A stretch of DNA of 64,000 nt, from assembly GCA_038861545.1 (NCBI GenBank), contig JAWCCZ010000001.1, forward strand, positions 224,001-288,000, in the 5' to 3' direction. The stretch comes from Thermofilaceae archaeon. GTDB lineage: Archaea > Thermoproteota > Thermoprotei > Thermofilales > Thermofilaceae. The position numbers and the translations under genes were made by a program. How positions within the stretch are numbered: position 1 is the stretch's first letter; each line of letters begins with the position of its first letter. The notes below the pieces were generated by a model. The model did no database searches. It saw only the letters and a list, made by a program, of their open reading frames with translations, and was not told the DNA's origin. Shown one piece after another: positions 10,987-35,305 of this stretch.

Positions 10987-11101
10987 CTCAACTACTTGAG
11001 CAACAGACTAGTTTAAGGAATACCTTGAAAACCCTAGCGGAAAACGATGGAAGGTACTTTTCAGATCCCTAATGTTTTAAAATCAGCTTGAATGAACTCT
11101 T

Positions 11102-16250: not shown

Positions 16251-16946
16251 ATGTCGTGGCAGGATGCAGCTAAAAAGGCTCTTTTGAACGCGGGCGCTCG
16301 AGTCGAAGATGGACAGAAAGGTTTACTAATTAGGAGCGAGGAAGAAAGAGGCGCTACTTTCACCCTTCTCGTGAGGAGGCTCCAAATGAGCCTAGATCGC
16401 AAAGTAGAGCTAGTTGGTACCATTGAAGTATCCCCTTATGGTAATGCTGATGTTTTGAGGGAAATGCTAGCGTCATCCTTCGAGGTAACGATGAAGGGAT
16501 TTATTCGGAAGAGCTTCGCTTGGAAGCATTGGGATGGGCTTCATTCTCTCGAAAGAGTTTTCGCTCCGATAGTATTTAACAAAAAATTACTCGACATGGT
16601 TAAATCAGATAACAGTGTAGTGACCATGTTACGTGAAGCTTCTCCGGACCTCCTTGAGGTTTTCCCAGAGATAATGTCTTCAAGCTTTATGGAGGCATAT
16701 CTAGTCACACCGGCTCCGTTTGAGGGTTCCCTCATTAAGGAGCTTATTAGCAAATACCTCAAAGAGCCGGAGAGATTAGCCTGGTGTATTAGATTACAGT
16801 TCTTATATGGATCTCCTAGGATGCCAGTAAAAATACAGAAGAATTACCAACTAGCGCTGCAATTGGGTAAAAGCTTGAAAAAATTTACTGAACAGCTTTG
16901 CTTATATATTTCTTCCTCTCATCAGAGGGGAGCGAACTCCACATGA
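16251..16946 (+). CDS. Hypothetical protein
   Basis: 231-aa ORF with normal composition and no recognised motif. Its 3' end overlaps the convergent permease gene. Confidence 0.6.
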   Translation: MSWQDAAKKALLNAGARVEDGQKGLLIRSEEERGATFTLLVRRLQMSLDRKVELVGTIEVSPYGNADVLREMLASSFEVTMKGFIRKSFAWKHWDGLHSLERVFAPIVFNKKLLDMVKSDNSVVTMLREASPDLLEVFPEIMSSSFMEAYLVTPAPFEGSLIKELISKYLKEPERLAWCIRLQFLYGSPRMPVKIQKNYQLALQLGKSLKKFTEQLCLYISSSHQRGANST

Positions 16947-19900
16947 GAAGCTGCTTCCTCATGTCGTCTATGAACTTGTAGTTGCTGCTGACCCAGAGGG
17001 ACTCAGATCCAGATAATCTTGTCAGGCTGACTAGGAATACATACCTTTTAACGCTTTTATCAAGTAACGATGTTAACTCGACAGATTGTTGAACACCGGC
17101 TTCTACTGGTGAAAGCGCTACTTTTATTGAAAGCTTCTTAGAGGCATAATCTGGTACTTCAAGTTCCCTAACTACGTGTACACCCTCCTTAGCCGCACCG
17201 GCACCGCTATAGTACTCGTAAAGGTAAGCAAGCATCCCTTTAGCCTCCGCCTCACTAGGCACGCTCACTGGAAGCGGTATTTCCCACCTATTCCCTCTGG
17301 GTTTAGTCGGCGGTTTCCACTTTCTTTCGAGGGAAGGCGTAATTATTCTGGCGGCAAGTGTTGATGGATAAAGCACCGCGGCTAGAGACGCCCCTATTAT
17401 GGCTAGCGTACCTACGATCGTAAAAGCAGAGGCGAAGTTGAAGATATGCTCAAGAGGTAAAGCTCCCGCTAAGATCATCAGCTGTGTCATACCATATCCT
17501 AAGAGGTAGCCGAGAACTATTCCTACAGTCACATATACTAACACTTCTGCTATGAAGAATACAGTGATTCCGAGGGGGGAGAGACCTACTGCGCTCAAAA
17601 CGAAAACTTCCCTAGTTCTTTCTTTGAGATTACCCAGCACCATAACGGCAACATTTAACGCACCGATCACTAACACAGCGACAACCATCTCCCATCCGCC
17701 GACGGATAAACTAGTAAATGTAGACGAAACATAAGCTGAACCAGTATGCGAGAAGTACAAGGGTATGTCTATAGCAAACGCCAGCCCACGGACTGTGGTT
17801 AATAGGGAGTCGGAAGTTACAACCCCCTTCCTAGGAATGAGAGCTATAGAAGCCACATAACCGTTGAGTTCCAAAGCTTTGCGATACGGTACTATGATTA
17901 CTCTAGAAACTCCAAGATTTGGTGGAGAAGCACCTGCCTGAAGTGAAACCGAAATGTCCGGTGCTAATTGGGAAAAGTATATCGGGTCGGTTGGGGTTGG
18001 ACTATAACCATCAGCTTCAAGCATCTTATCTATGAATTCTGGCACTTCAACTATACCGGAGACTACGAATTCCTCACCAAGTAAATATATCCTGTCGCCG
18101 ACAGATAAGCTGAGGTTCTGGGCGAGGGATTTGGACACAACTGCATAGTTTCCCTCGTCAAGGAAAATACCTGCCCCCTCAGTGGCGTTTAGATACAACA
18201 ACTTATATTCTTTCGACGTGACTCCGAGAATCGCGTTTACTGTTCCGTTATTACCTTTTTCACTTACCACTGAAAAAACAAGTCCCATGAGCATTCTATC
18301 TACTGATGGGTAAACCCATACCCGCGGCAAAACCTCATAGTTAGGCCCGGCCATTACTTTTGCGACATTCACAAGCTCGGTCGATAGAGTGTTTGGAGGT
18401 ACACCGCGCCCCTGCTTAATTAATATTTGATCGATGGAGGACTTGTATCCGTACCTTGAAACCGGTAGGGTAATCCTGGCAGGCATCAACGATGTAAACG
18501 ATGTAATCGCTATGGTCATCGCAATAATAGTTGCAAGCATAAGAACTGTCCGCATAGGTCTTTTCCTAATGTATTCGCTACCCATTGAGAACGCAGTTAC
18601 AGCGGTATCCACCCTACTAACCTCTGAGCGGTGAACACCAAGAATCTTTCTTTCGATTCTACTTCTTAAAGCTTCTCCCTCAGATCCTAGCATTACAACA
18701 GTGATCAGTAATATAATTGTTATCAGTGAACCCACAAGCCCTAAAGGTATGTTACTAAGAATAGCGAACGCTGGGTGAATCATTAGGAAAAACCACAGGA
18801 TAACAGCTGCTAATACAGTCATCGTCGCGATTCTTTTTACCCCCTCCCTATGCAATGAGATTTTTTCAAGGAAGAATGCCGCAAAGGCAATTAAGGGGAA
18901 CATGTAAAGCATTGACCGCGCTGCATCATTAACCAAGGGCATTACCTCGCTGCTATAGGCTTTGCTTGCATATGCTCTAGCTACTAATGCATGAGCATAC
19001 GCCTCATGATATAACGTTGCCGAAAACGCCTCTTTAGCTCTATCTAAATGCTCACGCGCTTTACTAAGCGTTAAGTCGGCACTAGGGCTACCCACATGTC
19101 TGTCTACGAAATGCTTGTATCTACCACTTGAAATATAATACATGTCGTTAGCTGCTCTATATGCTGTGAAAATTACCCGGATGTTTTTCCCAGGTGATCC
19201 AATAAACCCGTACCCCTCAGTGTTTTCTGAACTGGAGTTTGTGAGTAGCAAAAATGGTTGAAGAGCTGCTGCCGTTCCTGTCATGCTGGTGTATCCCACA
19301 ACAATGAAGTATGTTTCAGGCTGAGCCCAAACTAAGGCTACATTTTCCCAACCATTGCAGAAATATCCATAGCTGAGAGGTAAGCTTTTGCTAAGTAACT
19401 CATAAGGCTGGAATATTACGGAAGTTTGCCTCCACCAGCCAAAGTAGCTTGTCCTAGGATCGGGCATACTAGGGGTTAGGAGTGTTGATGGTAAATTAAC
19501 GTCGAATAACTCTATTATGACAGCAGGGGCTACAACTACAGTTAGATTTTCATACTCATGTAAAACATTTATTATTTGGGCGAAGTTTTGCATACCAAAT
19601 TGACCTAAATCCGTAGCCATGATAATTGCTCCCTGCTCGTTAAAAACCCACCCCCTTGCAATCCATCTCGAAAAAGGTACAGCTGTGCCTCCGCCGGCGA
19701 CCCTCCCTGCATGTGGTATGCCGTAAATAACAAAACGACCCTCCGCATCAGTTCTGGTTATAATTTTGTTTAACTTATAAGTCGACGTTACTAGCTGTGT
19801 TTCTACAATAGCGTTTGGAACCGGGCTATACCAGCCAGCGCTAAAGTTATATCTTACTACTCTACCATAGAATGTAGTAAACCCAGGATAACCCCTATCG

Positions 19901-21393
19901 GCAGCGAGATCGTAGCGTGTAGGTTTAATTGAGTTTTTGCTAATTTGCCATTCAGTGTTTAATAATTCTAGGACTATATATGTAGTTACTTCAAGGTAGG
20001 GTTTTAAAGCGGATACATTAGCGTACTGCCAGTCATCCACAGGCATGCCGACGTATAGCCTACTCGAATGCCTGCTGGTTATTGAGAAGGAAGGTACCCC
20101 ACTTATAGATGCGGCCTCCGAATCTAGCATATAGGGAATCGGTTCGGTTCCCCAGAATCCCTGGTAAGAGAAGAACGTGCTCACTAGAGCTGATGGACTC
20201 GGAACACCCAGGACCGAGTTCGTATAAGTTCTTAAAGGTTCTTCGGCCAAAATGGTCTGAATCTTATTGGATACCCAGGTAAGCCTAGCGGGGAAGCCTC
20301 CACTGTGTATCGAGTTACCACCATAAGTTGTGAAGTAGCTGGACTGTAACAGTTGAATACCGTCTGAATCGCTGGAAAACATGTCAAACCCTATAAAGCC
20401 CCATATAGTCGTTCTTCCGCTAAGGATTTCTTCATTGAAGAAGTAATCTTCAATGAAAGCCCTAACCCCTGCTAATGCCTGCCAATGACCCGAGAGGAAA
20501 ACCAGCCAGACGGTGTATCGAGGTTTATTTTCTTTCAAATATCTGGCCAGTTCAAGCAAATAAGCAGGGGCTATAGCTTCGGCCTTACTATTCGATAAAG
20601 CTGGAACCACTGACCATGAGTCAAAGTGAGCCGCTAAGATAAGTATATCAGAAGCAGAGCTCCCGTTAATGACAGCGATCAAGTTAGCCGCCTCTATCTC
20701 CTTCCAGGTTATCTTGGATACTAGCCTAATTTTAGAAGCATTCTCTACAAGCTTCCAGTCGTCTTTATTTATGTAAACTCGCGGGAAGTTGATAGGAGTA
20801 TCAAGAAACTTCTTATTGCATTCATAATACGTGGTCGAAATTGGCTCTATGAATATAACCGCCTTTGCACCTAATTTAGCAGCGTTAAGCCAGTTATCTT
20901 GTGAGTTAAATTCCATTGCAACTATACTGCCTTCAATGTTTTTCCCGTTAAAATCGCTTAGTTCTCCCTTACCGACGTAATGTAGTGGGCCTTCTAACCC
21001 TTCTGGTGGTGTTGTAGAAGGATTAACGCCATTCGGGTATAGAGCGTGAACCTTGACCCGAAGGTACGGCGGCTCTAAAACTTCTATATATGCTTCTTCT
21101 TCGAAGGGTACAAGAACTTTATAGGTGTGGGTGGTGACTTTTAAGCCGAGTTCATCTTGAAGGTAGGAATAAATAAATTCTAAGGTTTTCTGGTAGCCCG
21201 GATACCCAGTCATTCTAGAGCCAAAGTTTGAGATAATCTCTACTTTTTCTTCTATCTGAGCGTAATCCAGCTGGGTTAGTGAGACTTCTGGTTTACCAAA
21301 ACTGACAGCTAAATATGCCAAAGTAATTAGGGTTAGTGCTAATACGGCTATAGAATTGCAAAGGAACTTCTTTTTAGGTGTTTGTACTTTCAT
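16885..21393 (-). CDS. 1502-aa FtsX/MacB-like permease with N-terminal PA and degenerate M28 peptidase domains
   Basis: Signal anchor, SRMTGYPG, PA insert (AAKLGAKAVIF), AHFDS, a TM bundle, and the FtsX motif ERTREVFVLSAVGLSP. Confidence 0.85.
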   Translation of the reverse strand: MKVQTPKKKFLCNSIAVLALTLITLAYLAVSFGKPEVSLTQLDYAQIEEKVEIISNFGSRMTGYPGYQKTLEFIYSYLQDELGLKVTTHTYKVLVPFEEEAYIEVLEPPYLRVKVHALYPNGVNPSTTPPEGLEGPLHYVGKGELSDFNGKNIEGSIVAMEFNSQDNWLNAAKLGAKAVIFIEPISTTYYECNKKFLDTPINFPRVYINKDDWKLVENASKIRLVSKITWKEIEAANLIAVINGSSASDILILAAHFDSWSVVPALSNSKAEAIAPAYLLELARYLKENKPRYTVWLVFLSGHWQALAGVRAFIEDYFFNEEILSGRTTIWGFIGFDMFSSDSDGIQLLQSSYFTTYGGNSIHSGGFPARLTWVSNKIQTILAEEPLRTYTNSVLGVPSPSALVSTFFSYQGFWGTEPIPYMLDSEAASISGVPSFSITSRHSSRLYVGMPVDDWQYANVSALKPYLEVTTYIVLELLNTEWQISKNSIKPTRYDLAADRGYPGFTTFYGRVVRYNFSAGWYSPVPNAIVETQLVTSTYKLNKIITRTDAEGRFVIYGIPHAGRVAGGGTAVPFSRWIARGWVFNEQGAIIMATDLGQFGMQNFAQIINVLHEYENLTVVVAPAVIIELFDVNLPSTLLTPSMPDPRTSYFGWWRQTSVIFQPYELLSKSLPLSYGYFCNGWENVALVWAQPETYFIVVGYTSMTGTAAALQPFLLLTNSSSENTEGYGFIGSPGKNIRVIFTAYRAANDMYYISSGRYKHFVDRHVGSPSADLTLSKAREHLDRAKEAFSATLYHEAYAHALVARAYASKAYSSEVMPLVNDAARSMLYMFPLIAFAAFFLEKISLHREGVKRIATMTVLAAVILWFFLMIHPAFAILSNIPLGLVGSLITIILLITVVMLGSEGEALRSRIERKILGVHRSEVSRVDTAVTAFSMGSEYIRKRPMRTVLMLATIIAMTIAITSFTSLMPARITLPVSRYGYKSSIDQILIKQGRGVPPNTLSTELVNVAKVMAGPNYEVLPRVWVYPSVDRMLMGLVFSVVSEKGNNGTVNAILGVTSKEYKLLYLNATEGAGIFLDEGNYAVVSKSLAQNLSLSVGDRIYLLGEEFVVSGIVEVPEFIDKMLEADGYSPTPTDPIYFSQLAPDISVSLQAGASPPNLGVSRVIIVPYRKALELNGYVASIALIPRKGVVTSDSLLTTVRGLAFAIDIPLYFSHTGSAYVSSTFTSLSVGGWEMVVAVLVIGALNVAVMVLGNLKERTREVFVLSAVGLSPLGITVFFIAEVLVYVTVGIVLGYLLGYGMTQLMILAGALPLEHIFNFASAFTIVGTLAIIGASLAAVLYPSTLAARIITPSLERKWKPPTKPRGNRWEIPLPVSVPSEAEAKGMLAYLYEYYSGAGAAKEGVHVVRELEVPDYASKKLSIKVALSPVEAGVQQSVELTSLLDKSVKRYVFLVSLTRLSGSESLWVSSNYKFIDDMRKQLLMWSSLPSDERKKYISKAVQ

Positions 21394-21414
21394 AATTGAA
21401 GGTAAACTACGATT

Positions 21415-21459
21415 CCCTATAAAGGTTTATACTGATTTTCGGCAAATACTTTTATAGGG
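21415..21459. promoter_or_regulatory. Symmetric divergent promoter (inverted TTTATAGGG boxes)
   Basis: CCCTATAAA at 21415-21423 and TTTATAGGG at 21451-21459, each about 20-22 nt from its start codon. Confidence 0.65.
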
Positions 21460-21478
21460 CTTCTGACTCAGTCCTCCA

Positions 21479-23395
21479 ATGTCTGGGAGTGACGACATCG
21501 AATTCAAACCAGGATACACGTGGAGAAGCTTGTTAGCAATGATTTTAGCCGGACTTATTTTTATGCCGGCTTCAGTCTACCTTTGGTTAGCAGTCGGAGC
21601 CGGAGCCAGCACTGCTGCCACGTACGTTACGGTGATACTTTTTAGCGCATTAGCTAGAATATACGGCACTCAGTTAACTAGGCAGGAGTTGTTCATAATT
21701 TACTCTATAGTGGGAGGCATTGGAGGAGCGATGCCGATGTTTTACTGGTTAGTTTTTAGAAGCTACTTTATAAATAACCCACTTAGCTTAGAATTCACCA
21801 TAGAGGGTAAGCCAGTAAGGGACTTTGTACCTTACTGGATGGCGCCCCCTGTAACCTCTTTTGCTCATGCGGCAAGGACATTCTTCACAGTAGACTGGTT
21901 ACCAGCTGTTACCACAACTATTGTTTTCGCCACCCTTAGCCTAGTAGCAGAGTTTTCACTGGGCATGTTGTTTTCGTACCTTTACATCGAGATTGAACCA
22001 CTACCTTTCCCCTTTGCTCAAATCGATGCTACAATGGTAAACACTTTGTATGAACGAGAACACGAGCGCATGTTCTATTTTTTCACTTCGTTAATTGGAG
22101 GGGCCGTATATGGTTCCTTAGTGTACTTGATCCCCCTGATTCTTGGACCGCAGGCTGCCGTAATACCGTATCCCTTCATTGACTTTACTCCGTACACACA
22201 GTTCTTCCTTCCTGGCGCAGCGCTAGGTGTAGCTACAGATCCAACCGCTTTCCTTTATGGAATGGTGCTTTCCCCTACAGTTACCTTTTCAATAATGCTG
22301 GGCTCCCTGGCTACATGGGTTTTCGGGAACACATTAACTCTTATAATCTTCAGGAATTTTTCGCCGGAATGGGTGAAAGAGTACGCTCCCGGTATGGGAC
22401 TTTTCCTAATTTACCAGAGAGCTAGCTTAAGGCTTTGGCTCTCAACTTTTATGGGGTTAAGCTTTGGATTAGCTATTTTCGTATTTATTATAACATGGAG
22501 CAGGCTGTCCAGTGCGCTTAAATCGTTATCAAAGATTAAAGAGGCGAAAGGGGGACCGGGTTATCCTCCAGCTAAGTTTCTGTTGTCAGCTTTCTTAGCC
22601 TCGACTCTTACAAGTGTAATCCTCTACTATTACCTTGTTCCAGGCATACCGCTTTGGCTACCCTTGTTCGTTTCAGTGTTTCTGAGCTTTGTAATCGCTT
22701 TCCTTGGTGCTAGAGTTTACGGCGAACTCGGTTTAACGTTTTCATCAGATTTTGTGTATAATATGTGGAAAACCGCAGTCTACTTCAGCCCATACCAAGG
22801 GTATGCTGGATGGATCTCCACGCCGGTGATTGCCGGCTTTTCAACACCTTGGTATGTTAACGCCACAAAGGTAGCCTACTTGACTAGGACAAAACCCATA
22901 GATTACTACAAGGCTGTTTTGACGTCGTTCGTTATAACAACCTTGTTAGGCCTATTTTTTATGGACTTTTTCTGGAGAATGGCGCCCATCCCCTCTTTCG
23001 TTTACCCATACGTAATGGGTCTCTGGCCGGCTTACGCTATCAGCGACTGTCTATTCGCTACTAGACAGATAGCCGTGAGGTTAGATCAAATACTAGTAGG
23101 AACCGGCATTGCATTAATGGGGGGTTTTGGCGGTTTCATGCTAGCTAAAATCGGTGCACCACTGAACCCGATTGCATTAATAAGTGGATGCTTCTCATTG
23201 CCGCCTTACACTATAATGGTGTTCATAATGTCAATGTTGAGCAGGTATGTGGTGGCAAAAGCCATTGGCAGAGAGAGGTGGGAGGGCATAAAAGCAGTAT
23301 TCATAGCCGGTTTTCTCGCGGGCATGGGCATAGTTGTCGCATCAGGGGTTGCTTTAACATTGTTGTCTAAAGCATCTTGGGTTTGGCCATGGTAG
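21479..23395 (+). CDS. OPT-like polytopic membrane protein (putative peptide transporter)
   Basis: 638 aa, roughly 15 hydrophobic segments, with FKPGYTWRS, LTRQE and EPLPFPFA motifs. Confidence 0.7.
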   Translation: MSGSDDIEFKPGYTWRSLLAMILAGLIFMPASVYLWLAVGAGASTAATYVTVILFSALARIYGTQLTRQELFIIYSIVGGIGGAMPMFYWLVFRSYFINNPLSLEFTIEGKPVRDFVPYWMAPPVTSFAHAARTFFTVDWLPAVTTTIVFATLSLVAEFSLGMLFSYLYIEIEPLPFPFAQIDATMVNTLYEREHERMFYFFTSLIGGAVYGSLVYLIPLILGPQAAVIPYPFIDFTPYTQFFLPGAALGVATDPTAFLYGMVLSPTVTFSIMLGSLATWVFGNTLTLIIFRNFSPEWVKEYAPGMGLFLIYQRASLRLWLSTFMGLSFGLAIFVFIITWSRLSSALKSLSKIKEAKGGPGYPPAKFLLSAFLASTLTSVILYYYLVPGIPLWLPLFVSVFLSFVIAFLGARVYGELGLTFSSDFVYNMWKTAVYFSPYQGYAGWISTPVIAGFSTPWYVNATKVAYLTRTKPIDYYKAVLTSFVITTLLGLFFMDFFWRMAPIPSFVYPYVMGLWPAYAISDCLFATRQIAVRLDQILVGTGIALMGGFGGFMLAKIGAPLNPIALISGCFSLPPYTIMVFIMSMLSRYVVAKAIGRERWEGIKAVFIAGFLAGMGIVVASGVALTLLSKASWVWPW

Positions 23396-23454
23396 GCAAT
23401 TGTCTTAAAATTTTTACAACAAAGCTTAAGTAGGAGCTTTTTCATACTATTTCA

Positions 23455-25563
23455 ATGACAACCGAATACAGAAAAGAGGTTGTCGAGTACCTACCAGGTT
23501 TAACGAAGCGCTCGCTTGTAATCGGCATCCCGTTGCTGCTGGTTTACGCCTATCTCTCCGTCATCGTAGGTTTATACACAGATAAAAGTGGGACATTCGG
23601 AACATTCGTTATACCGATGATATACTTGGTCTTCATCTTTGAACTCCTTGGTCGAGCAAGCCCGAAGCTCAGGTTAACGCCACAGGAGTGGGTGTTCGTT
23701 TTCTCCCTTTTCACGTTCATGGGTATGCACAGTTACTTAACCATGCACGCAGCGGCGCATGTTAACCCACCCCAGTACATCTGGAGCTGTATCCCATGGG
23801 GAGATTACCTAGGTTTCACAACCGGAGGTTTAGAGAATTACTGGAGCGCTGCCGTACCGGCAGTATCTGTACCACCTGAACCATTACGTTTTGAAGTAGC
23901 TCGAATGATCCGCAGCGGTAGGAGCATTGGCCAGGAGATTCCATGGGGCGCGGTTTTGCAGCCTCTATTCTACTGAGGAATAGTATACATATTTTACTGC
24001 CTAATTAGTGCTTGGGTTGCCTTTACGTTCGGTAAACCTTGGGTTGAGGAAGAGCGCCTAGTATTTCCGCTAGCTATCCCGTCGCTTTACTTGTTTAGGG
24101 AAGCTACTGAAGTATCAGACGGAAGAAAATCAAGGTTATTCGACTTCAGAGTACCGCACACCAAGGTCTTCTGGGCGATGTTTGTTGTCGGAATCATTAG
24201 CGGTATAAACCCGATACTAGCCGAGCTGCTGCCAGCTTTTCCGATCGGAGCTTGGTGGGGGGAGACAAATCTACAGCTGACATTTTTAGGTAATATGTGG
24301 CCGGGAGTCTACGCAGCCGCGATATTCTTCATCCCGCAAGTAGCAGTAGGGCTCGTGATGCCCAACGACGCTCTGATAACTTTAATTCTATGCTGGATTA
24401 TCTTTGGAGTCCTCTACCAAGGTATCGCTGTGATGACAGGTCAAGTGCAGTACAACCCCGGTATGGAATACGTATGGCCTTGGGAGGATTACCCTGGAGT
24501 TTGGATGCCGTTTCCATACAGGTTTATTGCATCTAACGGAGTTGGCTTAGCTATTACGATATGGATGCTCTTCAGATATCGGAGAAGATTCGCAGAGGCT
24601 TTTTCAACGCTGTGGAAGCGGGACATATCGGAGCGTGGTCTCTCCTTAAGACTCGCAACGATTCTAATGCTTATAGGCTTCTTCGGCTGGTATGCCATAA
24701 TGCTCATGGATCAAGCTAGCCCAATCGTAGCTTTACTAGTACCGTTCTGGGCGCTGCTATGGAACATTTGCTTTGCCAGGGTTTTCGCTGAAGTATTCTG
24801 GCACGTTGGTACAGGTTGGGGCCATACGTGGATCCCGACTTACGAGTTCGGCAGGCTTATACACGGATGGCGGGCATGGGATCAAGTTACCTGGGACAAC
24901 CCGATGACTGATTCAGCATGGTTCACCCCTGCAAGGCATATAGCAAACTTAAGTAACTGGAACATCTCCTTCAGCCCGTTAAGCGCCGGCCATCAAGTCA
25001 CTCTGTACAAACTCGCATATGATCTGAAAATGAGACTTTCCGACCTATTAGTAGCAATCATCATCGGCGCTCTAGTCTTCTCGTTTGTAGCCATGCCGAT
25101 TGAAGCATACTTTATCCTGCACACAAAAGGCGGCTTAGATGTTACGAACGCTGCGGGTGCGAACTGGTGGCCGTGGATGGCAGCCGGCTGGTACCACAGA
25201 GGGTACTGGATGGCCACGGGTATGACGCCAGATACTGTTGGATGGCTGTTCTACGGTGTGGGCTTAGCGCTTGGCTTAATTTTCTACATACTTAAGGCGA
25301 GGTTTACTTGGTTCTGGTTCATTAGCGTGCCAGCTTTGTACATTGGCATGACGATTGTGACCTACATGTGGTTAACTTCTCTGCTCGCTTTGATTATAAA
25401 GTTTGTGGCAATAAGAACTGTAGGCATTAAACGATACGAGGAGTACGCTACACCCGCTGTAGCTGGTTGGATTCTTGGTTTCGGTGCCGCATGGTTGCCT
25501 GCAGCGCTCGTTAACTTCTTCGTAGTTGTCCTACCAAGGTTAAGCGCGCTCTGGGTACCTTAA
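23455..25563 (+). pseudogene. Second OPT-like/DUF6785-like membrane protein interrupted by one in-frame TGA
   Basis: ORFs 23455-23976 and 24091-25563 share a frame. After TGA 23974-23976 the frame reads GIVYIFYCLISAWVAFTFGKPWVEEERLVFPLA, a paralogue of the EPLPFP motif. Confidence 0.8.
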
Positions 25564-25593
25564 ATTATAAGATTGAAAAAATATTTCTATTTT

Positions 25594-26232
25594 TTACTTT
25601 GGTTTCGATTTTTCATTACTTTTAAGTTTAAGTATCGTTAAAATTGCTTGACAGTAAGCCCTTAATCTCTTATAACCGATTACAGGCGGTAAAAGCCCCT
25701 TTCTCCTCAGATCCCCCATCATTAATTCAAGTTTTTTAGGTTCAATTTGGAGAAGTTTTGCCGCATCTTCAAGATTTTCACTAGCGGCTATCGCCCCAAA
25801 TATCTTTAAAGCATTTGGATCTTCAAATACGGATAGCGTGGATATCAGCTCAATAATTGCCTCTTCTACGGCTGCTTTAACTATGTAGAATAATTCTTCC
25901 TCATCAACTGCGTAAAGATCAGAAAGGAGTATCACGCCCACGTTGAGCTTGTTAGCTAATGCTTCAGCTGACTTATCAGAAAACCCGCGGGCAATGATTA
26001 AAGGTGTCACTCCTAGGAGCTCTGCATTAATTTTAGCTTGTCGAACGTCTGATACGCTTACTTTACCGGCTTTTATCTCTACGGCATGTAAGCCAGCCGT
26101 GCCCTCAGCCAGCAGGTCGACTTCACCTACCTGCGATTCTTCAATTATTATTGGAACACTTTCTTGTAGTACCCTATACCCCATTCCCTCGAGTACTCTT
26201 TTTGCGATCTCTACACTGGCTTTACCCCTCAT
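25594..26232 (-). CDS. PD-(D/E)xK restriction-endonuclease-like (RecB-family) protein
   Basis: E...LEGMGY, EVDLLA and AVEIKAG motifs, with a possible C-terminal HTH. Confidence 0.75.
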   Translation of the reverse strand: MRGKASVEIAKRVLEGMGYRVLQESVPIIIEESQVGEVDLLAEGTAGLHAVEIKAGKVSVSDVRQAKINAELLGVTPLIIARGFSDKSAEALANKLNVGVILLSDLYAVDEEELFYIVKAAVEEAIIELISTLSVFEDPNALKIFGAIAASENLEDAAKLLQIEPKKLELMMGDLRRKGLLPPVIGYKRLRAYCQAILTILKLKSNEKSKPK

Positions 26233-26277
26233 ACGGTAAACTCTGATACTTTACAACTTAATTACTGTTAGCATAGA

Positions 26278-27309
26278 TTAAATGCTCCAGTATCTGCGTA
26301 GAAGCAACTTCAGCTCAGCCACGTATTCCCTAGCTAACTTTCTGACGGCTTCGGCTGAACACATCTTCTTGACCGTTACTAAGCTTTGCCCTGCAAGGCT
26401 AGAAACGAAAGCCGGAAGTCCCTTACCCAAGCCTTCGTCATACCCACCTTCGAGGACTGCTACGATGCACCTAATTCCATGAGATCTATACAGCGAGCCG
26501 AACTTTGTAAAAGTGTAAATCCCGGCTTTCAAGTGTGTTAATCCGTCTCCAGCATAAGAGTCAAAACCAGCCGAGAAAACTATTGCCTCTGGCTTGAAGC
26601 TTTCGAGGAGAGGGTCCCCAATTTCCTCGACAGCTAGTTCATATACATCATCTCCGCTACCAGGGGGTAATACTACATTGACCTTGTAGCCCTCGCCCTC
26701 GCCCTCCCCCACGTCGCTCAGGAAGCCTGTACCGGGGTATAACGTAACAGGGTCTTCGTGAAAATCTATAATTAGTACTCGGGGATCGCTATAGAATATC
26801 TCCATAGTTCCATTACCGTGATGAGCGTCGAAATCGATAATCGCTACCCTCTTAAGTCCTAGCTCTAGTAGCCTAGCTGTAGCTAATGCGGAATTGTTGA
26901 ATATGCAGAAGCCCTGGGTTTGCACCCCTAGGGCGCGACCCCTTTTCCCCGCATGGTGTCCTGGCGGTCTCACTATCGCGAAAGCCATTTCTCCGTTGTT
27001 AGCCAGTTCAGCTGCTCTAAGAGCTGCTCCGGTAGCATACAACGCGGCTTTCGCCGTACCTCTCGAAAGGTAGGTATCACCGTCCAGTACAGAAACACCG
27101 CTGTTAATTTTGCCAAGTATACTTTCGACATATGCTGGCGCGTGAACTCGGTGTAAATCCTCTACTCTAGCAGGAGAAAAATCCCTATCAAGCGTTGAAA
27201 AACCAGCTTTCTCCAAAGCTTCTAACGCTATTATCATCCTTTGTGGTCTCTCGGGGTGGGGAAACGGTGGTATATGTTCAAGGAATGCTGTGTGGTATAG
27301 CAATCTCAT
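26278..27309 (-). CDS. Histone deacetylase-family (AcuC/AphA-like) protein
   Basis: HPERP, RPPGHH, GFCIFNN, DFDAHHGNGT, SAGFD and LEGGY motifs. Confidence 0.95.
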   Translation of the reverse strand: MRLLYHTAFLEHIPPFPHPERPQRMIIALEALEKAGFSTLDRDFSPARVEDLHRVHAPAYVESILGKINSGVSVLDGDTYLSRGTAKAALYATGAALRAAELANNGEMAFAIVRPPGHHAGKRGRALGVQTQGFCIFNNSALATARLLELGLKRVAIIDFDAHHGNGTMEIFYSDPRVLIIDFHEDPVTLYPGTGFLSDVGEGEGEGYKVNVVLPPGSGDDVYELAVEEIGDPLLESFKPEAIVFSAGFDSYAGDGLTHLKAGIYTFTKFGSLYRSHGIRCIVAVLEGGYDEGLGKGLPAFVSSLAGQSLVTVKKMCSAEAVRKLAREYVAELKLLLRRYWSI

Positions 27310-27335
27310 TTTCGACGTTAGAAAACTGCAGTGTT

Positions 27336-27785
27336 TTAATTGGTAACGGTCATTGAACGCAGCTCAGCTTGCAGTTTCTTCGCAGCATCGTCCGAAGAGG
27401 AGTAAATAATTAATCTGAAGCAAGGGTTTTTAATGCCTCTAATCAGAACCGAAGTAAAGTTAACTCTTTCTTCCTCACACATGGCAATTACATACTTGCC
27501 TTTGAGTAGCCCATAGGCGATTTCGAAACCTACTCCCAGGCTTGGGTATGATATCTCCGCTACCAGCATGTCAGCCTCTTCGAGTAACTGAACATCTCTT
27601 TCATAAACTTCTTCCGGCTTTAAACCGCGATCTACGTCTACGGTTTCGTCTACTACTTGAGGAGTGAGTAGCTCGCAGCCGGATCCCGTGATTACGTCGG
27701 CTAGGCGTTTAACCGTTGGTAACGCTTTCCTGACACCTCTTATTGGAGCGGCTAAATAGATTTTCACAGCCGGATCTACGCACAA
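27336..27785 (-). CDS. Nucleoside 2-deoxyribosyltransferase / DNPH1(Rcl)-like N-hydrolase
   Basis: KIYLAAPIRG, VYERD and PSLGVGFEIAY motifs. Confidence 0.85.
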   Translation of the reverse strand: MCVDPAVKIYLAAPIRGVRKALPTVKRLADVITGSGCELLTPQVVDETVDVDRGLKPEEVYERDVQLLEEADMLVAEISYPSLGVGFEIAYGLLKGKYVIAMCEEERVNFTSVLIRGIKNPCFRLIIYSSSDDAAKKLQAELRSMTVTN

Positions 27786-27840
27786 AACCGATAAACATAA
27801 CTTTTAGTTAAAGTCCTCCGATTGCTCTGGGGTTTACATA

Positions 27841-28293
27841 ATGGAGGTTAGGAAGTTAAGCTGGTCAGATGTGATAGGTCTCGCACTCACATTGGCCGAG
27901 GAGGCTAGATCGGACGACCCCCAGGCAATAGTTGCCGTGCTAAGGGGTGGGATATACCCAGCTTTGATAATCGCGTCGAGGCTAGGCGTGGAAAGGTTGT
28001 ACACTGTGGGGTTCAGAAAGTACAGTGACGATAAGCCTCCACAAGAGTTAAGCAAAAAACCCACGCTGGTCGGAGAAAATGTCCCGAGCTTAAGTGGAGA
28101 GCGCGTAATCATTGTGGATGACGTGGCTAGAACCGGTAGCACAATGAAAGCAGCGAAAGAGCTACTAGAGTCGAAAGGCGCTGGTCAGGTTAAAACAGCG
28201 GTTCTAGTTTTAAGGTCTCGCACGATGGTTTACGCTCCCGACTACTACGCTATATTCATGAAGGACTGTCCCCTTTTTCCCTGGGACCAATGA
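27841..28293 (+). CDS. Type I phosphoribosyltransferase (purine PRT-like)
   Basis: AVLRGG, PRPP loop IIVDDVARTGST, C-terminal FPW. Confidence 0.88.
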   Translation: MEVRKLSWSDVIGLALTLAEEARSDDPQAIVAVLRGGIYPALIIASRLGVERLYTVGFRKYSDDKPPQELSKKPTLVGENVPSLSGERVIIVDDVARTGSTMKAAKELLESKGAGQVKTAVLVLRSRTMVYAPDYYAIFMKDCPLFPWDQ

Positions 28294-28520
28294 GTCGAGC
28301 TAGAAGGAAGAGGGTTGAGGACTTAGCTGCCCTAATCATACAGATAGCCTCTAGGGATGTGTTTGGAAGCGTCGGCCGAGTATTGATCCCCGAATTGGAA
28401 ATAGAGGGGTATAGTTACGATGAGATAAGTGAAGCTCTAAGCGTGCTTAGAGAGGAGGGTTACCGCATTACAGTTGTTGGTGACATTGTAAAGATAGACT
28501 TTAGCGCTAGTAAGGGGTAA
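28290..28520 (+). CDS. Small hypothetical protein (possible wHTH)
   Basis: 76 aa, translationally coupled to the PRT gene (ATGA overlap). Confidence 0.65.
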   Translation: MSRARRKRVEDLAALIIQIASRDVFGSVGRVLIPELEIEGYSYDEISEALSVLREEGYRITVVGDIVKIDFSASKG

Positions 28521-28525
28521 CGCGT

Positions 28526-28807
28526 TTAAAAATTACACTTGCGTTTTCTTCTAAGCAATGCTGCGCCTTTCTCAGTTAATTCGAAGGTTCGAAGCCCCTT
28601 TCTCCCGATTTTACACGCTAAAGTAACTGGGCAGGATGAACAAGGCTTTGCTTTTATTTCCCTTAAGTATCCATGAGCTAACAATGCCCCGATAGCACTC
28701 TCAGCTTCACTCAGCTGCACTCCGAGCTGCCTAGCTACCTCTGAAAGGGTGATAGGCCCTTTAGCCACCGTAAATAGTATCTTTTCGAGATCGAACTTCA
28801 CAGTCAT
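28526..28807 (-). CDS. FeoC-like winged-helix protein with a Cys cluster
   Basis: TLSEVARQLG...LLAHGYL, CSSCPVTLAC in the wing, then LTEKG. Confidence 0.7.
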   Translation of the reverse strand: MTVKFDLEKILFTVAKGPITLSEVARQLGVQLSEAESAIGALLAHGYLREIKAKPCSSCPVTLACKIGRKGLRTFELTEKGAALLRRKRKCNF

Positions 28808-28897
28808 ACCACGAGTCTAAAGCCGTTAAAGATTTCCATTGTAGATTCCGAGCTTACTACGAGTTAAAGGTTGCTTATACATGTTTTAGCTGCCTGA

Positions 28898-29326
28898 CAC
28901 GACAGTGAAATTTTTAGGTATGCGAATGCTGAAGAGAGAAGCTTAGAAGGATTTTTCTGTTCTTACTGCCATTCTCCTCTGCTTGGAAGCTCTTCAAATC
29001 CTTCAACAACTACCGAGGATGGAGTTTACCTAGGCGATATAGAAGGAGAAAATTCGCCTCTAATCTTACCTATTAACCCATACTTTGGATTCCACTTCGC
29101 ATTTTACGGTGTAACTGGCACGGGAAAGACTAGGGCAGCCATGAACCTTGCGATAAACGCTGAGAATAAGGGCTTATGCCTAAGAATACTAGACGTTGAA
29201 GGAGAATGGAAAAAGATAATTCCAAAACTGAGCAAGGAAACTATTTTCTACGATTCAGAATATAACCTTAAAGTTAATCCATCTTTGGTATTATCTCAGC
29301 GAAGATTAATTCGGCTAGTTTATTAA
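28898..29326 (+). pseudogene. Fragment of a HerA/DUF87-family P-loop ATPase
   Basis: Open frame lacking a start codon: GVYLG...HFAFYGVTGTGKT (Walker A, 29108-29131)...ILDVEGEW...KVNP, then it stops. Confidence 0.75.
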
Positions 29327-30012
29327 ACTCCATAATGGACAACCCACCAATTATATTCATCAATAAGTTTAGCCAAGGTTTTTCTACCATACTCTCGACC
29401 AAGTTTATTGCTTGGAAGTTCTCGGCAAATTCTCTCTACAATTTCCTTTTTGTTACATCCGCTCTTTTTTGCTTCCTCTTCTATCGCCTCTTCCACTTCT
29501 CTCTTAACCAGCTTTAGGAATTCTAAGTAACCCTTTGCGCCTCCTGCGACTTTATATTTTCTCCTGATATCATCATCCCACATTACGAAGAGTTCTGGAT
29601 TAAGTAAATGCAGGATCTTGGAGATTGCTGTAGCTCCTATGTAATCCACCTTTGCTGAACTATAACATTTTATGATAGCATCTGCTATTTCTTTATCCTC
29701 GAGATTGATATCTAGAAAAGTTTTACCTTGTAACTTTTGGAAGGATTCTTTAGAGTTACGTAATTGCTCAGTAAGTTGTTTCCAATCCAAATCCTTTCTA
29801 TCTACAGTTCTTCCCATTCTTCCCCATTGAGCAAGAAACATCTTAATTATTTGTTTCACATGCCTCTCTAATTCCAATCTGCCGAGGTCAACTCTGACCT
29901 CTTTGAGCATTTCAAGAGCCTTAAAATACATGTATTCGCCAAACCAGAAGGAATCTTCAAAATTCCTAACACTCTCAACCAACTCTCTGTACCTCATGCT
30001 AAATCTCCTCAT
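29323..30012 (-). CDS. AT-rich hypothetical protein, possibly HhH-glycosylase-like fold (DUF6308-like)
   Basis: IGATAISKILHLLNPELFVMWD and KLIDEYNW motifs. Lower GC than flanks; probable start at the second ATG after GAGGAG. Confidence 0.55.
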   Translation of the reverse strand: MRRFSMRYRELVESVRNFEDSFWFGEYMYFKALEMLKEVRVDLGRLELERHVKQIIKMFLAQWGRMGRTVDRKDLDWKQLTEQLRNSKESFQKLQGKTFLDINLEDKEIADAIIKCYSSAKVDYIGATAISKILHLLNPELFVMWDDDIRRKYKVAGGAKGYLEFLKLVKREVEEAIEEEAKKSGCNKKEIVERICRELPSNKLGREYGRKTLAKLIDEYNWWVVHYGV

Positions 30013-30111
30013 TTCCTAATTCATCCTAACAACTTAAATTAAAAACACGATATAAAATTAACGGCAATTTTCTCTCAATAAAACTCACTCTCCCTAATAA
30101 CATCTCTTTTC

Positions 30112-31368
30112 ATGGCTAAGGTAATTATCGAACCAGCTGGTGATCTGCAAATAGAGGGAATGAACATTAAATATGGTCCCGGAAGCCTATTTAAAGCAAA
30201 AGTATGGGTGGTTAACGATGCTTCGAATATTTCAGGTGTTCTCTTTAAGTTGGGAGTTTGTGGATTTAAATGTAAGTCAAGTACTGGATAAAGGGTATTC
30301 CCAAATAATTATCCCTCGTAGCGAAGAGCCGGCTACGCTAGCTGCCTCTATTTGTTTTTCGATACCTGTGTACACAGATGGCATGCATGAAGTTGAGCTT
30401 AGGGTTACCTTATTGATGGGGGATGTAAAAGTTGATGACGAGGTTTTCAGCTTTTTTAAAGTTGCACCGGCAAGCGAAGTTATCGTAAAGCTAGTCAATA
30501 TTACCGAGCCGCTAAAATTTTACGTAGAGTACTGAAGGGTATTCTTTCTATCTACAATCTAGGGATGGAAGAAGTGTCTTCTATCTCCCCACGGGCTCGA
30601 GGGCAGTGGTCTATGGTCCAGTGCTTAACGTATCTTCTCCCTATTTACCAATAGTATACGACTTGGGCGTCCTACAAACCGGTGTAATAGAACTAGAGTT
30701 AACACTCATTGAGGGCTCACTATTCATTGTTAGAACGCCAATGCCTTCGCTAGATGGTTCACTACCAATGATCAACTTAAAAATTAAACCTTTTTCGGAA
30801 TTACCTGGACCGTACATTTTATCATACGATTCCTCAAGTATTGCTATCGCTTTAGCGCTTGGCTTAACAGGTTATCAGTTTATACTGCCGGCGAGGATTC
30901 CCCTCAACGTGTCTTACGATGTAAAGTGGGGTTTAAACCAAGTATCTTTTACAGTAGGCCCCTTAAACTTAAGCAAAGGCGAAGTGTATATTGATGATAG
31001 GCTGGCAAAACTGTTAGCCAGCGAAGCGTTAGAGTTTGGCAGCAAGGATATTTCAAATGCCTTAGCCAAGTTGACGTGGCTCGAGAAACGGGGTTTTTAC
31101 GCAGGTTTAACTAGGGAGATAGTTAAAAAAGCATCTGAAGCAATTGACGAAGCCCGTAAGACAATAGAAGACTCGCCCGAAGTATCCTCAACGCTCGCGA
31201 GGGAAGCTAGAAACTTACTGGTAGCTGCCACCGAAAATATAGGTAAAATTTATGCAGGGCTAAGGTTAACATCCTTCTCTTCTTTTTATTATTATTATAC
31301 TAGCTTCGCTTGGTTTTGCCTCAATCCTTGTTGAAGAGGAGCCTAAAAGACCGGTTATTGGAGTAGCA
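30112..31368 (+). pseudogene. Frameshifted 5' part of a second FtsX-like large permease gene
   Basis: Reading continues across three frame changes (~30240, ~30530, ~31270-31300): MAKVIIEPAG... / ...FYVE / STEGYSFYLQSRDG... / ...IIILASLGFASILVEEEPK. Confidence 0.7.
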
Positions 31369-33513
31369 GTGCTCGTAATTCTGGTAGTGATGGTTTACGT
31401 GACGTACCCAGGTATCACAGAGGTCGATACAGTCGAGCTTTTCTTAGGTATGTATACGAGCTTTTTAGTATTTATTCTCCTGATTGTGACACCCTATCTC
31501 CTTGAAGGGGTAAAAAGCGAAAAAGGTTTGCTTGTGTTTACCGCCGTGGCTATGGCGCTATCGGTAGCGGCTAGGAATCTGAGAAGAAGGGGTTTACGTA
31601 CCGCTCTAGCCCTGTTTTCAGTTATTGCTCTTTCTCTGGCTGTTTCCAGTTTATCTTCTATGAGCTACTACGCTACTACAAAAGAATTGGTGACAACGGT
31701 TAAGGCTCAAGGGAGCGCGGATAACTTCCTGATGGTTTTCAGTAAACACAGTCTGACTTTCGATGACATCATATACGTGTTTTCGCAGCCAGAAACGCTA
31801 GAGGCTGGCTTCATACTGAGTAGCGTGCCGCGCCTTGAACCCTACGGCTATCATGCTACTAGGACCATCAGAGCCTTTATCGCCGTACACGGGTATTCAC
31901 CGATAAGGTCAGAGCTGTCAAAGATCGTCCAGCCGTTAGCTGCCATTGAGGAGCTTTCACAGCGTAGCGATACGGTACTCGTGAGCAGTGCTTGGAGGGA
32001 CACTGGTGTGCAACTAGGTGACATCGTAGATCTCGCTGGTATTAAGTTGAAGGTAGTCGGTTTTTATGACTCGAAGACTCTATCCTCTATAAAGGACGTT
32101 GGAGGTTACGATATTTTACCACTAAGTACCCGCCCCGATGGGGCGGTTGAACCAGTTCATCCGGACGAAATGGTAATTATAGCGCCAGAAGTAGCTATAA
32201 GGCTAGGAGGATTTACAAAACGAATCTACGCGAAAACCGGCAGTGATCGTGAGCTTTTGAATTTGGCTAAGAGGTTAAGCACACAGGAAGAGTATATAGC
32301 CGTAGCTAAGCCGGCAGACGGGTATATTAGGATTTACTTCCCAGGATTCACTGTTGAGTTTAGGGGGAACGAGGCTTTCTTGCCGATGGCTTTCGTATTT
32401 CTGAATATAGCAACCGTGGTTTTAGCGTCGGTTTACGAAAGAAGAAACGAGATTTTTACGCTAGCTTCTATAGGTTTGAACCCTACTCACATATTTTCAA
32501 CATTCCTATCCGAGGCCTTTCTACTAGGTTTCATCGGTGGGGCACTTGGGTACCTTACGAGCTTTACAGTATTTAAAGGTCTACAGTTATCTGCAGCAAT
32601 GGTGCCGGTCGATGTAAAAAGCGACTTCCATAGTATGCTTTTCATCATAAGCTTGTCAACAATTTCATCCGTAGTTGCTGGTATAATTCCATCCCTTAAG
32701 GCTTCAGCTTATGCCACTCCATCTTTAACTAGGCGATGGAGACTAGAGGCGGAAGTCGCAAGCGGTGTATGGAAAGTTGAAATCCCAGCCAGGGTGACAG
32801 AAGACAAAGCACTACAGTTCACCGAGTTTATTGTTGAAAGGTTAAGAGAAGAAGGGTACGGAATAGAGCGGGTTATAACAGACGTAAGCATGCATGAAAA
32901 GGTTGAAGGGGGAATGCAGACCTACGAGATTAAGTTTACTTACAGTAAAGGTGGCGGACAGGCCTTCACGGCTCCAAGCAGGCTGGTTATAAAGCCTTCA
33001 AACCAGGAGTTTTACAGCGTCCAGCTGCTAGTGGAGCCACGCTCAGCGTATCCAAAGCTTTATCAGAGGCACGTGCAGGAAGTATCGAGTTTTGTCAGAA
33101 ATGTGACCCTTGAATGGGCGTCACTGCGGGTTAGATTATTGGTGCCTGTGGGAACTGACCCAAGTTCTGTAGTGGAGCTTATCCGTCACTACAACCCACA
33201 ACTTGTAATAATTATAAGTAGAAGAGGAGATCCAAAAATCGTTAGAGAAATCAGAGGTAGGATTCGCGGTTTAGGATTACGTCCACCAGCGGTTGAACTC
33301 ATCGACCTTAAAAGTAAACAAATTGATGAGCTGGTAATTGAAGTTAAAAACCTTATTTCTAAGGCAGATATTATTGCAATAGACTCGGATGACGGAGTCT
33401 TAAGCGCTATAGTAGCACTCGTGGCTGCAACTGAGGGACGAAGGGTATCGGTATTGAAGAATGGAAAAGTCGAAGAAACAAGCGTAGATAAGCTCCTTAG
33501 ACCAGCTGCTTAA
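31369..33513 (+). CDS. FtsX-like permease (intact 3' part) with a C-terminal CARF-like Rossmann domain
   Basis: RNLRRRGLRT, ERRNEIFTLASIGLNP and TPSLTRRW, paralogous to 16885-21393. Carries an extra ~125-aa tail. Confidence 0.8.
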   Translation: MLVILVVMVYVTYPGITEVDTVELFLGMYTSFLVFILLIVTPYLLEGVKSEKGLLVFTAVAMALSVAARNLRRRGLRTALALFSVIALSLAVSSLSSMSYYATTKELVTTVKAQGSADNFLMVFSKHSLTFDDIIYVFSQPETLEAGFILSSVPRLEPYGYHATRTIRAFIAVHGYSPIRSELSKIVQPLAAIEELSQRSDTVLVSSAWRDTGVQLGDIVDLAGIKLKVVGFYDSKTLSSIKDVGGYDILPLSTRPDGAVEPVHPDEMVIIAPEVAIRLGGFTKRIYAKTGSDRELLNLAKRLSTQEEYIAVAKPADGYIRIYFPGFTVEFRGNEAFLPMAFVFLNIATVVLASVYERRNEIFTLASIGLNPTHIFSTFLSEAFLLGFIGGALGYLTSFTVFKGLQLSAAMVPVDVKSDFHSMLFIISLSTISSVVAGIIPSLKASAYATPSLTRRWRLEAEVASGVWKVEIPARVTEDKALQFTEFIVERLREEGYGIERVITDVSMHEKVEGGMQTYEIKFTYSKGGGQAFTAPSRLVIKPSNQEFYSVQLLVEPRSAYPKLYQRHVQEVSSFVRNVTLEWASLRVRLLVPVGTDPSSVVELIRHYNPQLVIIISRRGDPKIVREIRGRIRGLGLRPPAVELIDLKSKQIDELVIEVKNLISKADIIAIDSDDGVLSAIVALVAATEGRRVSVLKNGKVEETSVDKLLRPAA

Positions 33514-34570: not shown

Positions 34571-35305
34571 TCATTTATGTTCGAGTTTTTCAAGTGGCTT
34601 AACGTTGCCATAACAAGGTTTAGGTCCGCAAACGGGCGCTGCCCAACGCACCGCGTTAGCTATCACTTTTCTAACATTCTCATTGTAGTACGTAGGGTAG
34701 CTTTCATGCCCAGGTCGGAAGTAAAAGATTCTCCCTAGGCCACGGTAAAAGCAACAACCACTTCTAAATACTTCGCCCCCCTCGAACCAACTGATGAATA
34801 CGAGCTCATCTGGCTGTGGAATGTCAAAGAACTCTCCATACATTTCCTCGTGCTCGATCTCAAAGTACTCTCCTAAACCTCTAGTGATTGGATGCCATGG
34901 AGCTACAACCCATATGCGCTCTTTTTCACCAGCTTCTCTCCATTTCAAGCTGCAGCTAGTACCCATCAACCTGCGAAAAATCTTTGAGTAGTGCCCTGAG
35001 TGTAGAACGATTAAGCCCATACCCTCTTCAATTATCCTTCGGTATATTCTTTCAACCACCTTATCCTCTACCTTATCGTGAGCTGTGTGCCCCCACCATA
35101 TCAACACATCCGTGAGTTTGAGGATCTCGTTACCTAAGCCATGCTCTGGCTCTTGCAGAGTAGCAGTTCGAACTTCAATATCAGGCTGCTGACGAAGGTA
35201 CTCCGCTATAGCTTCATGTATACCCATAGGGTATACACGCGCGATTTCAGGCTCTGTTCTCTCATGTATATACTCGTTCCAAACGGTAATTCTTATCTTT
35301 TGCAC
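34571..35305 (-). CDS. thuA: ThuA-family trehalose utilisation protein
   Basis: VWNE, WWGH.AH, LHSGH, EEMYGE and YFRPGHE motifs. Confidence 0.88.

Follow-up and report, generated by a model that had tools for sequence, protein, structure and literature searches.

The window analysed here is a 64 kb stretch of archaeal DNA (G000:C1:224001-288000) from a genome of 1.63 Mb in 12 contigs (92% complete). The proteins it encodes have their closest database relatives in entries labelled Thermofilaceae metagenome-assembled genomes (MAGs). The window contains a gene for a 1502-residue membrane protein, here called GIANT (16885-21393, minus strand), and, divergent from it, genes for two further membrane proteins, OPTa and OPTb. 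GIANT combines a PA domain and a remodelled M28 ectodomain with MacB_PCD and FtsX domains. OPTa (21479-23395, plus strand; 638 residues) is a polytopic membrane protein with a predicted OPT/YSL fold. OPTb (23455-25563, plus strand), a DUF6785/DUF6784 protein, is a frame of 702 codons with an in-frame TGA at 23974-23976. The 85 bp between GIANT and OPTa (21394-21478) contain two inverted TATA-like boxes, read from the sequence at 21415-21425 and 21449-21459, and the distance from each box to its start codon is about 25 nt; this region would act as a shared divergent promoter.

A first-pass annotation of this DNA had described four large membrane genes forming two paralogous pairs, the fourth being an open reading frame (ORF) for a 714-residue FtsX protein (31369-33513, plus strand). 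All four ORFs are present, as are the motifs quoted for them: the FtsX proteins share RPMRT/RGLRT, ERTREVFVLSAVGLSP/ERRNEIFTLASIGLNP and TPSLERKW/TPSLTRRW, and OPTa and OPTb share LTRQE/LTPQE and EPLPFPFA/ERLVFPLA. Pfam agreed with the FtsX-like assignment, detecting M28, MacB_PCD and FtsX in GIANT, and FtsX (PF02687, 47.7 bits) with a weak MacB_PCD match in the 714-residue protein. The pairing survived for the OPT proteins and not for the FtsX proteins. The region is better described as one triad plus an unrelated relic, because the 714-residue protein appears to be the 3' part of a decayed gene for a protein of about 1800 residues (see the last section).

GIANT, OPTa and OPTb constitute a conserved, co-localised archaeal three-gene unit. 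A blastp search of all ORFs in the genome revealed six cassettes, each with a giant of 1480-1540 residues adjoining an OPTa paralogue, and in four of the six an OPTb paralogue is adjacent as well. The cassettes are 25-36% identical to one another, and the gap or overlap between GIANT and OPTa is at most 13 nt in five of them. The wider distribution was followed in a sample of 401 Thermoproteota genomes from 161 genera, in which the presence of a giant was scored by the GIANT membrane domain. OPTa was found in 66 genomes (28 genera) and the giant membrane domain in 76. At OPTa-centred loci from 20 different genera, GIANT was adjacent in 17 and OPTb in 16. At giant-centred loci, counted over 56 loci of at least 12 kb each, OPTa was present in 46 and OPTb in 41; these loci come from Thermofilaceae, Thermoprotei, Bathyarchaeia, Brockarchaeota, Caldarchaeales and Nitrososphaerota MAGs. 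Gene order and orientation differ, being divergent in the window cassette and co-directional elsewhere. The neighbourhood survey thus bears out an FtsX-OPT co-localisation beyond the window.

The literature on FtsX-like proteins with OPT partners or M28 domains and on DUF6785/DUF6784 yielded no characterised complex, as the first-pass annotation had stated. Likewise, the searchable literature contained no paper on a giant of the FtsX type that has a family-specific cytoplasmic tail, is accompanied by two OPT-fold proteins and lacks an ATPase gene in cis. Each part can be placed in a known superfamily (Type VII ABC permeases, OPT/YSL, M28); it is their conserved combination that is undescribed.

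Giants are also found at Caldarchaeales-type loci (L089-L102, at about 9500-11400), where they have 1556-1592 residues and no OPT neighbour. These are the closest full-length relatives of GIANT outside Thermofilaceae, and they are followed by two conserved genes (339 and 296 residues) that have no match in the window genome.

Domain architecture of the three proteins

Three Pfam families were identified in GIANT: PF04389 (Peptidase_M28) at residues 237-348, with 34.6 bits against a cut-off of 21.3; PF12704 (MacB_PCD) at 952-1135, with 30.6 bits against 27; and PF02687 (FtsX) at 1237-1349, with 39.7 bits against 25.5. A PA domain is matched weakly ahead of the M28 part. The hydrophobicity profile begins with a signal-anchor transmembrane helix (TM1, residues 15-33), followed by an ectodomain of about 790 residues (34-823), of which about 90-430 make up the PA and remodelled M28 domains and about 400 residues match no family. 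TM2-4 (824-903) lead into a cytoplasmic linker of about 45 residues that carries GxH and IRKRPMRT. The second half of the protein consists of TM5 (949-967), a MacB periplasmic core domain and TM6-8 (1236-1335) with the ERTREVFVLSAVGLSP loop, and because of this layout we identify it as a canonical MacB-type four-helix unit. The chain ends in a tail of about 165 residues on the cytoplasmic side (1345-1502).

Conservation was evaluated over 17 giants. At about 30% identity, the most conserved columns are cytoplasmic: GxH after TM4, MRKRxLRT before TM5, ERxREIxxYSxLGLSP between TM6 and TM7, and, in the tail, VTPSLERKWKxPTKPxGDxWEIPLP together with the remainder of the tail. The coupling elements, R..RT before the helix and the ER.rE...lGl.P loop, are found in both GIANT and the relic. 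Judged by these motifs, GIANT keeps the canonical cytoplasmic coupling elements of ATPase-driven MacB/FtsX permeases.

The tail domain proper (158 residues from TPSLERKW; 16888-17361, minus strand) is predicted by AlphaFold2 (AF2) to be an alpha+beta domain, with a predicted local distance difference test score (pLDDT) of 91.7. It contains no Walker motifs and is not a nucleotide-binding domain. A Foldseek search gave a best E-value of 5e-4 and TM-scores of 0.4-0.5, a weak helix-grip/KA1-like resemblance; the Z-scores of 8-9 obtained with VIA are close to the background of that tool, and a profile of the domain had no matches among PDB sequences. Assigning the tail to a family from its matches to Bet v 1/START, KA1, Aha1 and BamC was considered and dropped, the matches being weak and near the aligner background. 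The profile retrieved 1539 clusters at 50% identity, 425 of them at an E-value of 1e-30 or better, and the domain is nearly always C-terminal in proteins of 1430-1570 residues.

PF04389 is matched by all 17 giants. We aligned the GIANT ectodomain to the PA-M28 aminopeptidase of Aneurinibacillus (2ek8) and counted the ligand columns in the same 17 proteins. The PA insert and the M28 fold are shared, as are the H-x-D motif (H256 in GIANT; D258 in 17/17), an acidic residue at the bridging position (16/17; residue 272 in GIANT) and the LD motif (14/17; D337 in GIANT). In contrast to 2ek8, the catalytic and ligand Glu-Glu pair is replaced by His-Trp (His in 15, Trp in 11; H303-W304 in GIANT), and the last His ligand has become Ser or Thr (S425 in GIANT), followed by an invariant Glu. 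The catalytic Glu and the five metal ligands of M28 peptidases (H, D, E, D, H) are not found as a full set in GIANT. This pattern points to a conserved, remodelled site and not to a canonical di-zinc peptidase; the site may have a different catalytic activity. Calling the domain a pseudo-peptidase, as the first-pass annotation did, is fair. The transferrin receptor is a pseudo-peptidase of the PA plus M28 fold.

OPTa has no Pfam family of its own, and neither OPTa nor OPTb of the window matches the OPT family PF03169, a model that only 3 of the 32 relatives of OPTa and 1 of the 17 relatives of OPTb match. A search of PDB sequences with the OPTa profile returned nothing useful. The AF2 model of OPTa (pLDDT 85.6) can be superimposed onto barley YS1 (7wst/7wsr; Foldseek E-value 1e-12, TM-score 0.63-0.69), which provided the sole strong PDB matches, and on the strength of this model we assign OPTa to the OPT/YSL fold. 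Alignment of the OPTa and OPTb profiles by hhalign (probability 99.9%, E-value 3e-37, 582 columns) indicates that the two are true distant paralogues, in line with the first-pass annotation; OPTb is predicted to have the same fold through its homology to OPTa only. The likeness to the OPT/YSL family (TC 2.A.67) comprises the fold and size of OPTa, the PF03169 scores of some relatives and the YS1 dimer. The differences are an identity of about 15%, scores of the window proteins that stay below the Pfam OPT model, and the constant occurrence of OPTa and OPTb as two divergent paralogues beside an FtsX giant. YS1 is a homodimeric proton symporter (PMC9691689). Because YS1 assembles in this way, it is reasonable to propose, by analogy, that OPTa and OPTb probably pair with each other as a heterodimer. 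Prokaryotic OPT members were uncharacterised as of a 2011 survey of the family (PMC3061005).

The relatives of OPTb match PF20581 (DUF6785; 15/17) and PF20580 (DUF6784; 13/17), families whose function Pfam lists as not known. In the window, the single OPTb frame is split by the TGA into ORFs of 173 and 490 residues, and the N-terminal fragment alone scores 19 bits, under the cut-off of 25. An intact orthologue of 702 residues (81% identical), which has Trp at the TGA position, matches DUF6785/DUF6784 with 65.3 bits. We considered a different genetic code as the explanation. The Trp codon of the orthologue, together with the fact that no other broken long frame was seen in the window, fits better with a single TGG-to-TGA change or a sequencing error, and we regard the TGA as a recent nonsense change or an error of the sequencing or assembly consensus. 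DUF6785/DUF6784 are newly linked here to the OPT superfamily and to FtsX giants.

A candidate ATPase pair encoded in trans

GIANT has no fused or adjacent cognate ABC ATPase, and the first-pass annotation had proposed a system without one, suggesting a search of the whole genome for co-occurring ABC ATPases. This search proved productive. The genome encodes three LolD/MacB-type ATPases, one of which lies beside a canonical FtsX protein of 390 residues. Another, ABC1 (C3:20764-21492), lies beside a 238-residue FtsX protein lacking a periplasmic domain; the two genes together span G000:C3:19994-21492 (L051). ABC2 (C5:60848-61594, L052) is 71% identical to ABC1 and has no permease alongside. The Walker A/B, Q-loop, signature and H motifs are intact in both ABC1 and ABC2. 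Across families ABC1 is 71-95% identical, and it is operonic with the small FtsX protein in the window genome, G174, G006 and G046.

Relatives of this ATPase pair, counted at no less than 62% identity, occur in 85 of the 401 genomes. They are present in 73 of the 76 genomes with a giant membrane domain and in 65 of the 66 with OPTa (the overlaps of the genome lists were counted by hand). Conversely, 313 of the 316 ATPase-less genomes have no giant, and two of the three exceptions are at most 89% complete. Contrasts are also seen within three families (f1, genus g2 versus g1, g3 and g4; f14, g55 versus the rest; f37, g77 versus g91 and g142), so the association is not only a deep-clade effect. 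In three lineages the ATPase clusters with the cassette. The complete genome G046 has small FtsX, ABC1 and ABC2 in one operon, 3 kb from a cassette; in G098 a stretch of 18 kb accommodates ABC1 and both OPTa and OPTb, together with a small and a mid-size FtsX; and in G085 ABC1 is 2 kb from GIANT. Caldarchaeales ABC genes near giants were not accepted as the cognate motor, since their identity to ABC2 is only 33-36% and they sit with permeases of their own 3-6 kb away.

A complex of GIANT residues 815-1502 with ABC1 was modelled. It obtained a weak score of 0.43, where no control exceeded 0.00; 69% or more of the contacts were common to the runs, and the partner had a pLDDT of 77 or higher. Of 80 solved complexes, 58 attain the mark used for a pass, as do 2 of 110 mismatched pairs; both mismatches, but just 7 of the 80 complexes, do so with a score of 0.60 or lower.

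Given the retained coupling motifs, the co-occurrence of the LolD/MacB-type pair and its position near a cassette in three lineages, the earlier description of the system as ATPase-less is probably wrong. We moderately favour a motor that is encoded in trans and common to the genome's ten intact large FtsX proteins.

Proposed mechanism and alternatives

GIANT is most readily compared with the Type VII ABC systems (MacB-TolC, LolCDE, FtsEX-EnvC/PcsB/RipC and YbbAP-TesA). Like them, it places a MacB core domain between TM5 and TM6-8, its FtsX domain carries the cytoplasmic ER.rEi...lGl.p loop, and R..RT stands ahead of the unit's first helix. It also has a large extracytoplasmic part on which mechanotransmission could act, and a LolD/MacB-type ATPase is encoded in the genome. 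The differences are equally clear. GIANT is an archaeal protein of 1500 residues with four extra helices, an 800-residue ectodomain and a family-specific tail of 150 residues; it has no fused or adjacent ATPase, and its constant partners are two OPT-fold secondary transporters. Moreover, the extracellular hydrolase of FtsEX and YbbAP is a separate partner, whereas in GIANT a hydrolase-like domain is fused to the membrane base (M28-like in GIANT, GH2 in the sister gene).

The reading that we put forward, and to which we give about an even chance, is that of a Type VII-ABC-like mechanotransducer with a shared trans motor that feeds proton-driven OPT-fold permeases. GIANT would be a surface protein whose large ectodomain is borne on a MacB/FtsX-type membrane base. 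ABC1 (with the small FtsX) and ABC2 would drive all ten large FtsX proteins as a shared motor. ATP hydrolysis at the cytoplasmic coupling helices would be passed through the membrane base by mechanotransmission, as in FtsEX, LolCDE and MacB, and the resulting motion would move the ectodomain, which would capture or release an extracellular oligomer, either a peptide or a glycan. The oligomer would then be imported by the proton-driven OPT-fold permeases. This proposal starts from the observed domain content, folds, triad conservation, phyletic link to the ATPases and their occasional proximity; it would add that GIANT contacts the permeases and uses the ATPase in trans, together with a direction of transport and a cargo.

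The module is probably a nutrient-uptake machine. We favour this function over envelope biogenesis because there are six divergent copies, the ectodomains are of the hydrolase type, the permeases have an importer fold and the neighbouring genes are of a catabolic type. Genes recurring beside cassettes encode GFO/IDH/MocA oxidoreductases (10 of 26 loci) and URO-D-like proteins (7 of 26). The window itself has a sugar-catabolism flavour, with genes for ThuA (34571-35305), a DUF6807 protein (37061-38113) and an MFS transporter (41607-42854); further sugar genes encode an MR/MLE enolase-superfamily protein (7412-8518) and a GH2 beta-galactosidase (61912-64000) that runs off the window end.

Several observations weigh against the mechanism proposed above. 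We know of no Type VII ABC system that works with a secondary transporter. According to two reviews (PMC5985334, PMC12646458), all Type VII ABC systems characterised to date act at the outer face by extracting, expelling or activating and do not import. The cargo signals are split: the M28-like site would point to peptides, the neighbouring genes to sugars. The OPTb gene of the window copy carries a stop codon. An alignment of the transmembrane domains found no recognisable FtsX motifs in TM1-4 of GIANT, which may therefore not be a full pseudo-dimer. The window has no PF00005 match, as the first-pass annotation had noted (the genome has 48); none of the six cassettes has an ABC gene closer than about 10 kb, and just 2 of the 56 giant-centred loci have the conserved ATPase at a distance of 9 kb or less. 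The ATPases and the small FtsX could form an independent transporter, since the small FtsX is a possible permease of their own. Twelve genomes carry the ATPase without a giant match, and shared ancestry inflates the association between the two. Finally, the docking pass is weak and, as MacB-type complexes have already been solved, it may show likeness at best.

The absence of ATPase genes near the cassettes would be expected if the machine truly had no ATPase. The FtsX base would then be a passive scaffold or anchor, driven or gated by the OPT permeases or by the GIANT tail, and the LolD-type ATPases would serve only the small FtsX. The operonic pairing of ABC1 with its own small FtsX in the window genome, G174, G006 and G046 is consistent with this, as are the lack of FtsX motifs in the N-terminal four-helix half and the cytoplasmic domain of about 150 residues that follows TM8 and is limited to the giant family. 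We nevertheless consider an ATPase-less machine unlikely. The loop that contacts the ATPase in MacB-type systems and the motifs preceding the transmembrane helix are among the best-conserved parts of the giants, and the phyletic association, the clustering in three lineages and the weak docking pass all argue for a motor.

The other two explanations, both of which we find quite improbable, concern what the complex does and whether it exists. In one, the giant belongs to an export or envelope-biogenesis machine that extracts or expels a lipid-anchored component, an S-layer component or a peptide, as LolCDE and MacB do, with the OPT-fold proteins acting as exporters or flippases. The known activities of Type VII ABC systems at the outer face fit this explanation, and a helix-grip-like tail could bind lipid, but the fold match is weak. 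Furthermore, a set of six divergent copies whose ectodomains evolve fast is more in keeping with nutrient acquisition than with a housekeeping role, the characterised OPT/YSL members are proton-coupled importers (PMC9691689), and the catabolic-type enzyme neighbours and the sister gene with a glycosidase ectodomain also speak against export. In the other explanation, the proteins are co-regulated but physically independent: GIANT is an anchored surface binding protein or remodelled hydrolase, and the OPT permeases import its products without forming a complex with it. Variable gene order and orientation, the wide separation of the giant and the OPT pair in the genome of genus g77 and the lack of an OPT neighbour at about 18% of the giant loci would be compatible with such an arrangement. 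The tight coupling of GIANT and OPTa in five of six cassettes, and adjacency retained across Thermoproteota lineages at about 25-35% identity, are on the other hand typical of complex subunits.

Returning to the mechanotransducer with a trans motor, its most far-reaching form is a hybrid machine, which we offer tentatively and think rather doubtful. The shared Type VII motor, made of the small FtsX and two LolD-type ATPases, would plug into about ten interchangeable giant receptors, each coupled to an OPT-fold heterodimer, so that ATP-driven capture and proton-driven import take place in one complex. To our knowledge, a partnership of primary and secondary transporters of this type has not been described. 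Should the module work in the way put forward in this section, it would extend the mechanotransmission principle of Type VII ABC systems to archaea and to nutrient uptake, give prokaryotic OPT-fold proteins and DUF6785/DUF6784 their first functional context, and provide a case of one motor, encoded once, that is common to many permease paralogues. The family is present in multiple copies in uncultured heterotrophs of hot springs and sediments (Thermofilaceae, Bathyarchaeia, Brockarchaeota, Caldarchaeales) and probably matters for their feeding.

The GH2-FtsX relic and other features

The first-pass annotation had counted the 714-residue FtsX protein as a member of the unit. This membership fails: the gene is what remains of a different, broken one. 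Orthologues in four related genomes lie within open frames of 1802-1849 residues. One of the four, from a genome of the same genus (G358; L061:5179-10581, G358:C2), is an intact ORF of 1801 residues, 78% identical to the relic over the shared C-terminal part; the other three come from further Thermofilaceae genomes. Pfam assigns GH2 sugar-binding, Ig-like and TIM-barrel domains to the G358 protein, followed by MacB_PCD and FtsX. According to tblastn, blastn synteny and the Pfam domains of the orthologue, the relic of this GH2-MacB_PCD-FtsX giant extends over 30118-33513 (plus strand), and only codons 672-1801 of the G358 gene are retained. Three frame changes are located between 30118 and 31272, near 30240, 30540 and 31272, after which an intact frame of 746 codons (31273-33510) remains; its first start codon gives the 714-residue ORF. 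The comparison indicates that the gene is a decayed, 5'-deleted and frameshifted GH2-FtsX gene for a protein of about 1800 residues, lying outside the triad. The GH2 domains are missing from the window relic because that part is deleted. The intact orthologue shows that a true glycosidase fold, too, can be mounted on this type of membrane base.

Two predicted ORFs, orf120 and orf242 (30606-31334), are frame fragments of the GH2-FtsX gene. We had considered orf242 as the missing ATPase and rejected it: it has no ABC match. In the relic, about 125 extra C-terminal residues (33127-33513), Rossmann-like in look, follow the tail domain shared with GIANT.

Synteny analysis by blastn also revealed what happened upstream. 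The first 671 codons and a divergent gene for a 763-residue membrane protein, together 4.4 kb in G358 and including the 5' 2 kb of the GH2-FtsX gene, are replaced in the window by a segment of 1.28 kb (28839-30117), which is possibly inserted DNA. It contains orf229 (29323-30012, minus strand), for which no Pfam or NCBIfam family was found. The 763-residue protein (L061:2821-5112 in G358) belongs to a family of 763-798-residue membrane proteins beside FtsX giants that has no Pfam family; one member is divergent from the GH2-FtsX gene and another lies downstream of cassette 6 (G000:C1:404493-406889). A relationship of the G358 protein to the OPT-like proteins was rejected (hhalign probability <1%).

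Elsewhere in the window, a tRNA match at 56743-56848 spans 106 nt for a model of 71 positions, suggesting an intron-bearing archaeal tRNA.

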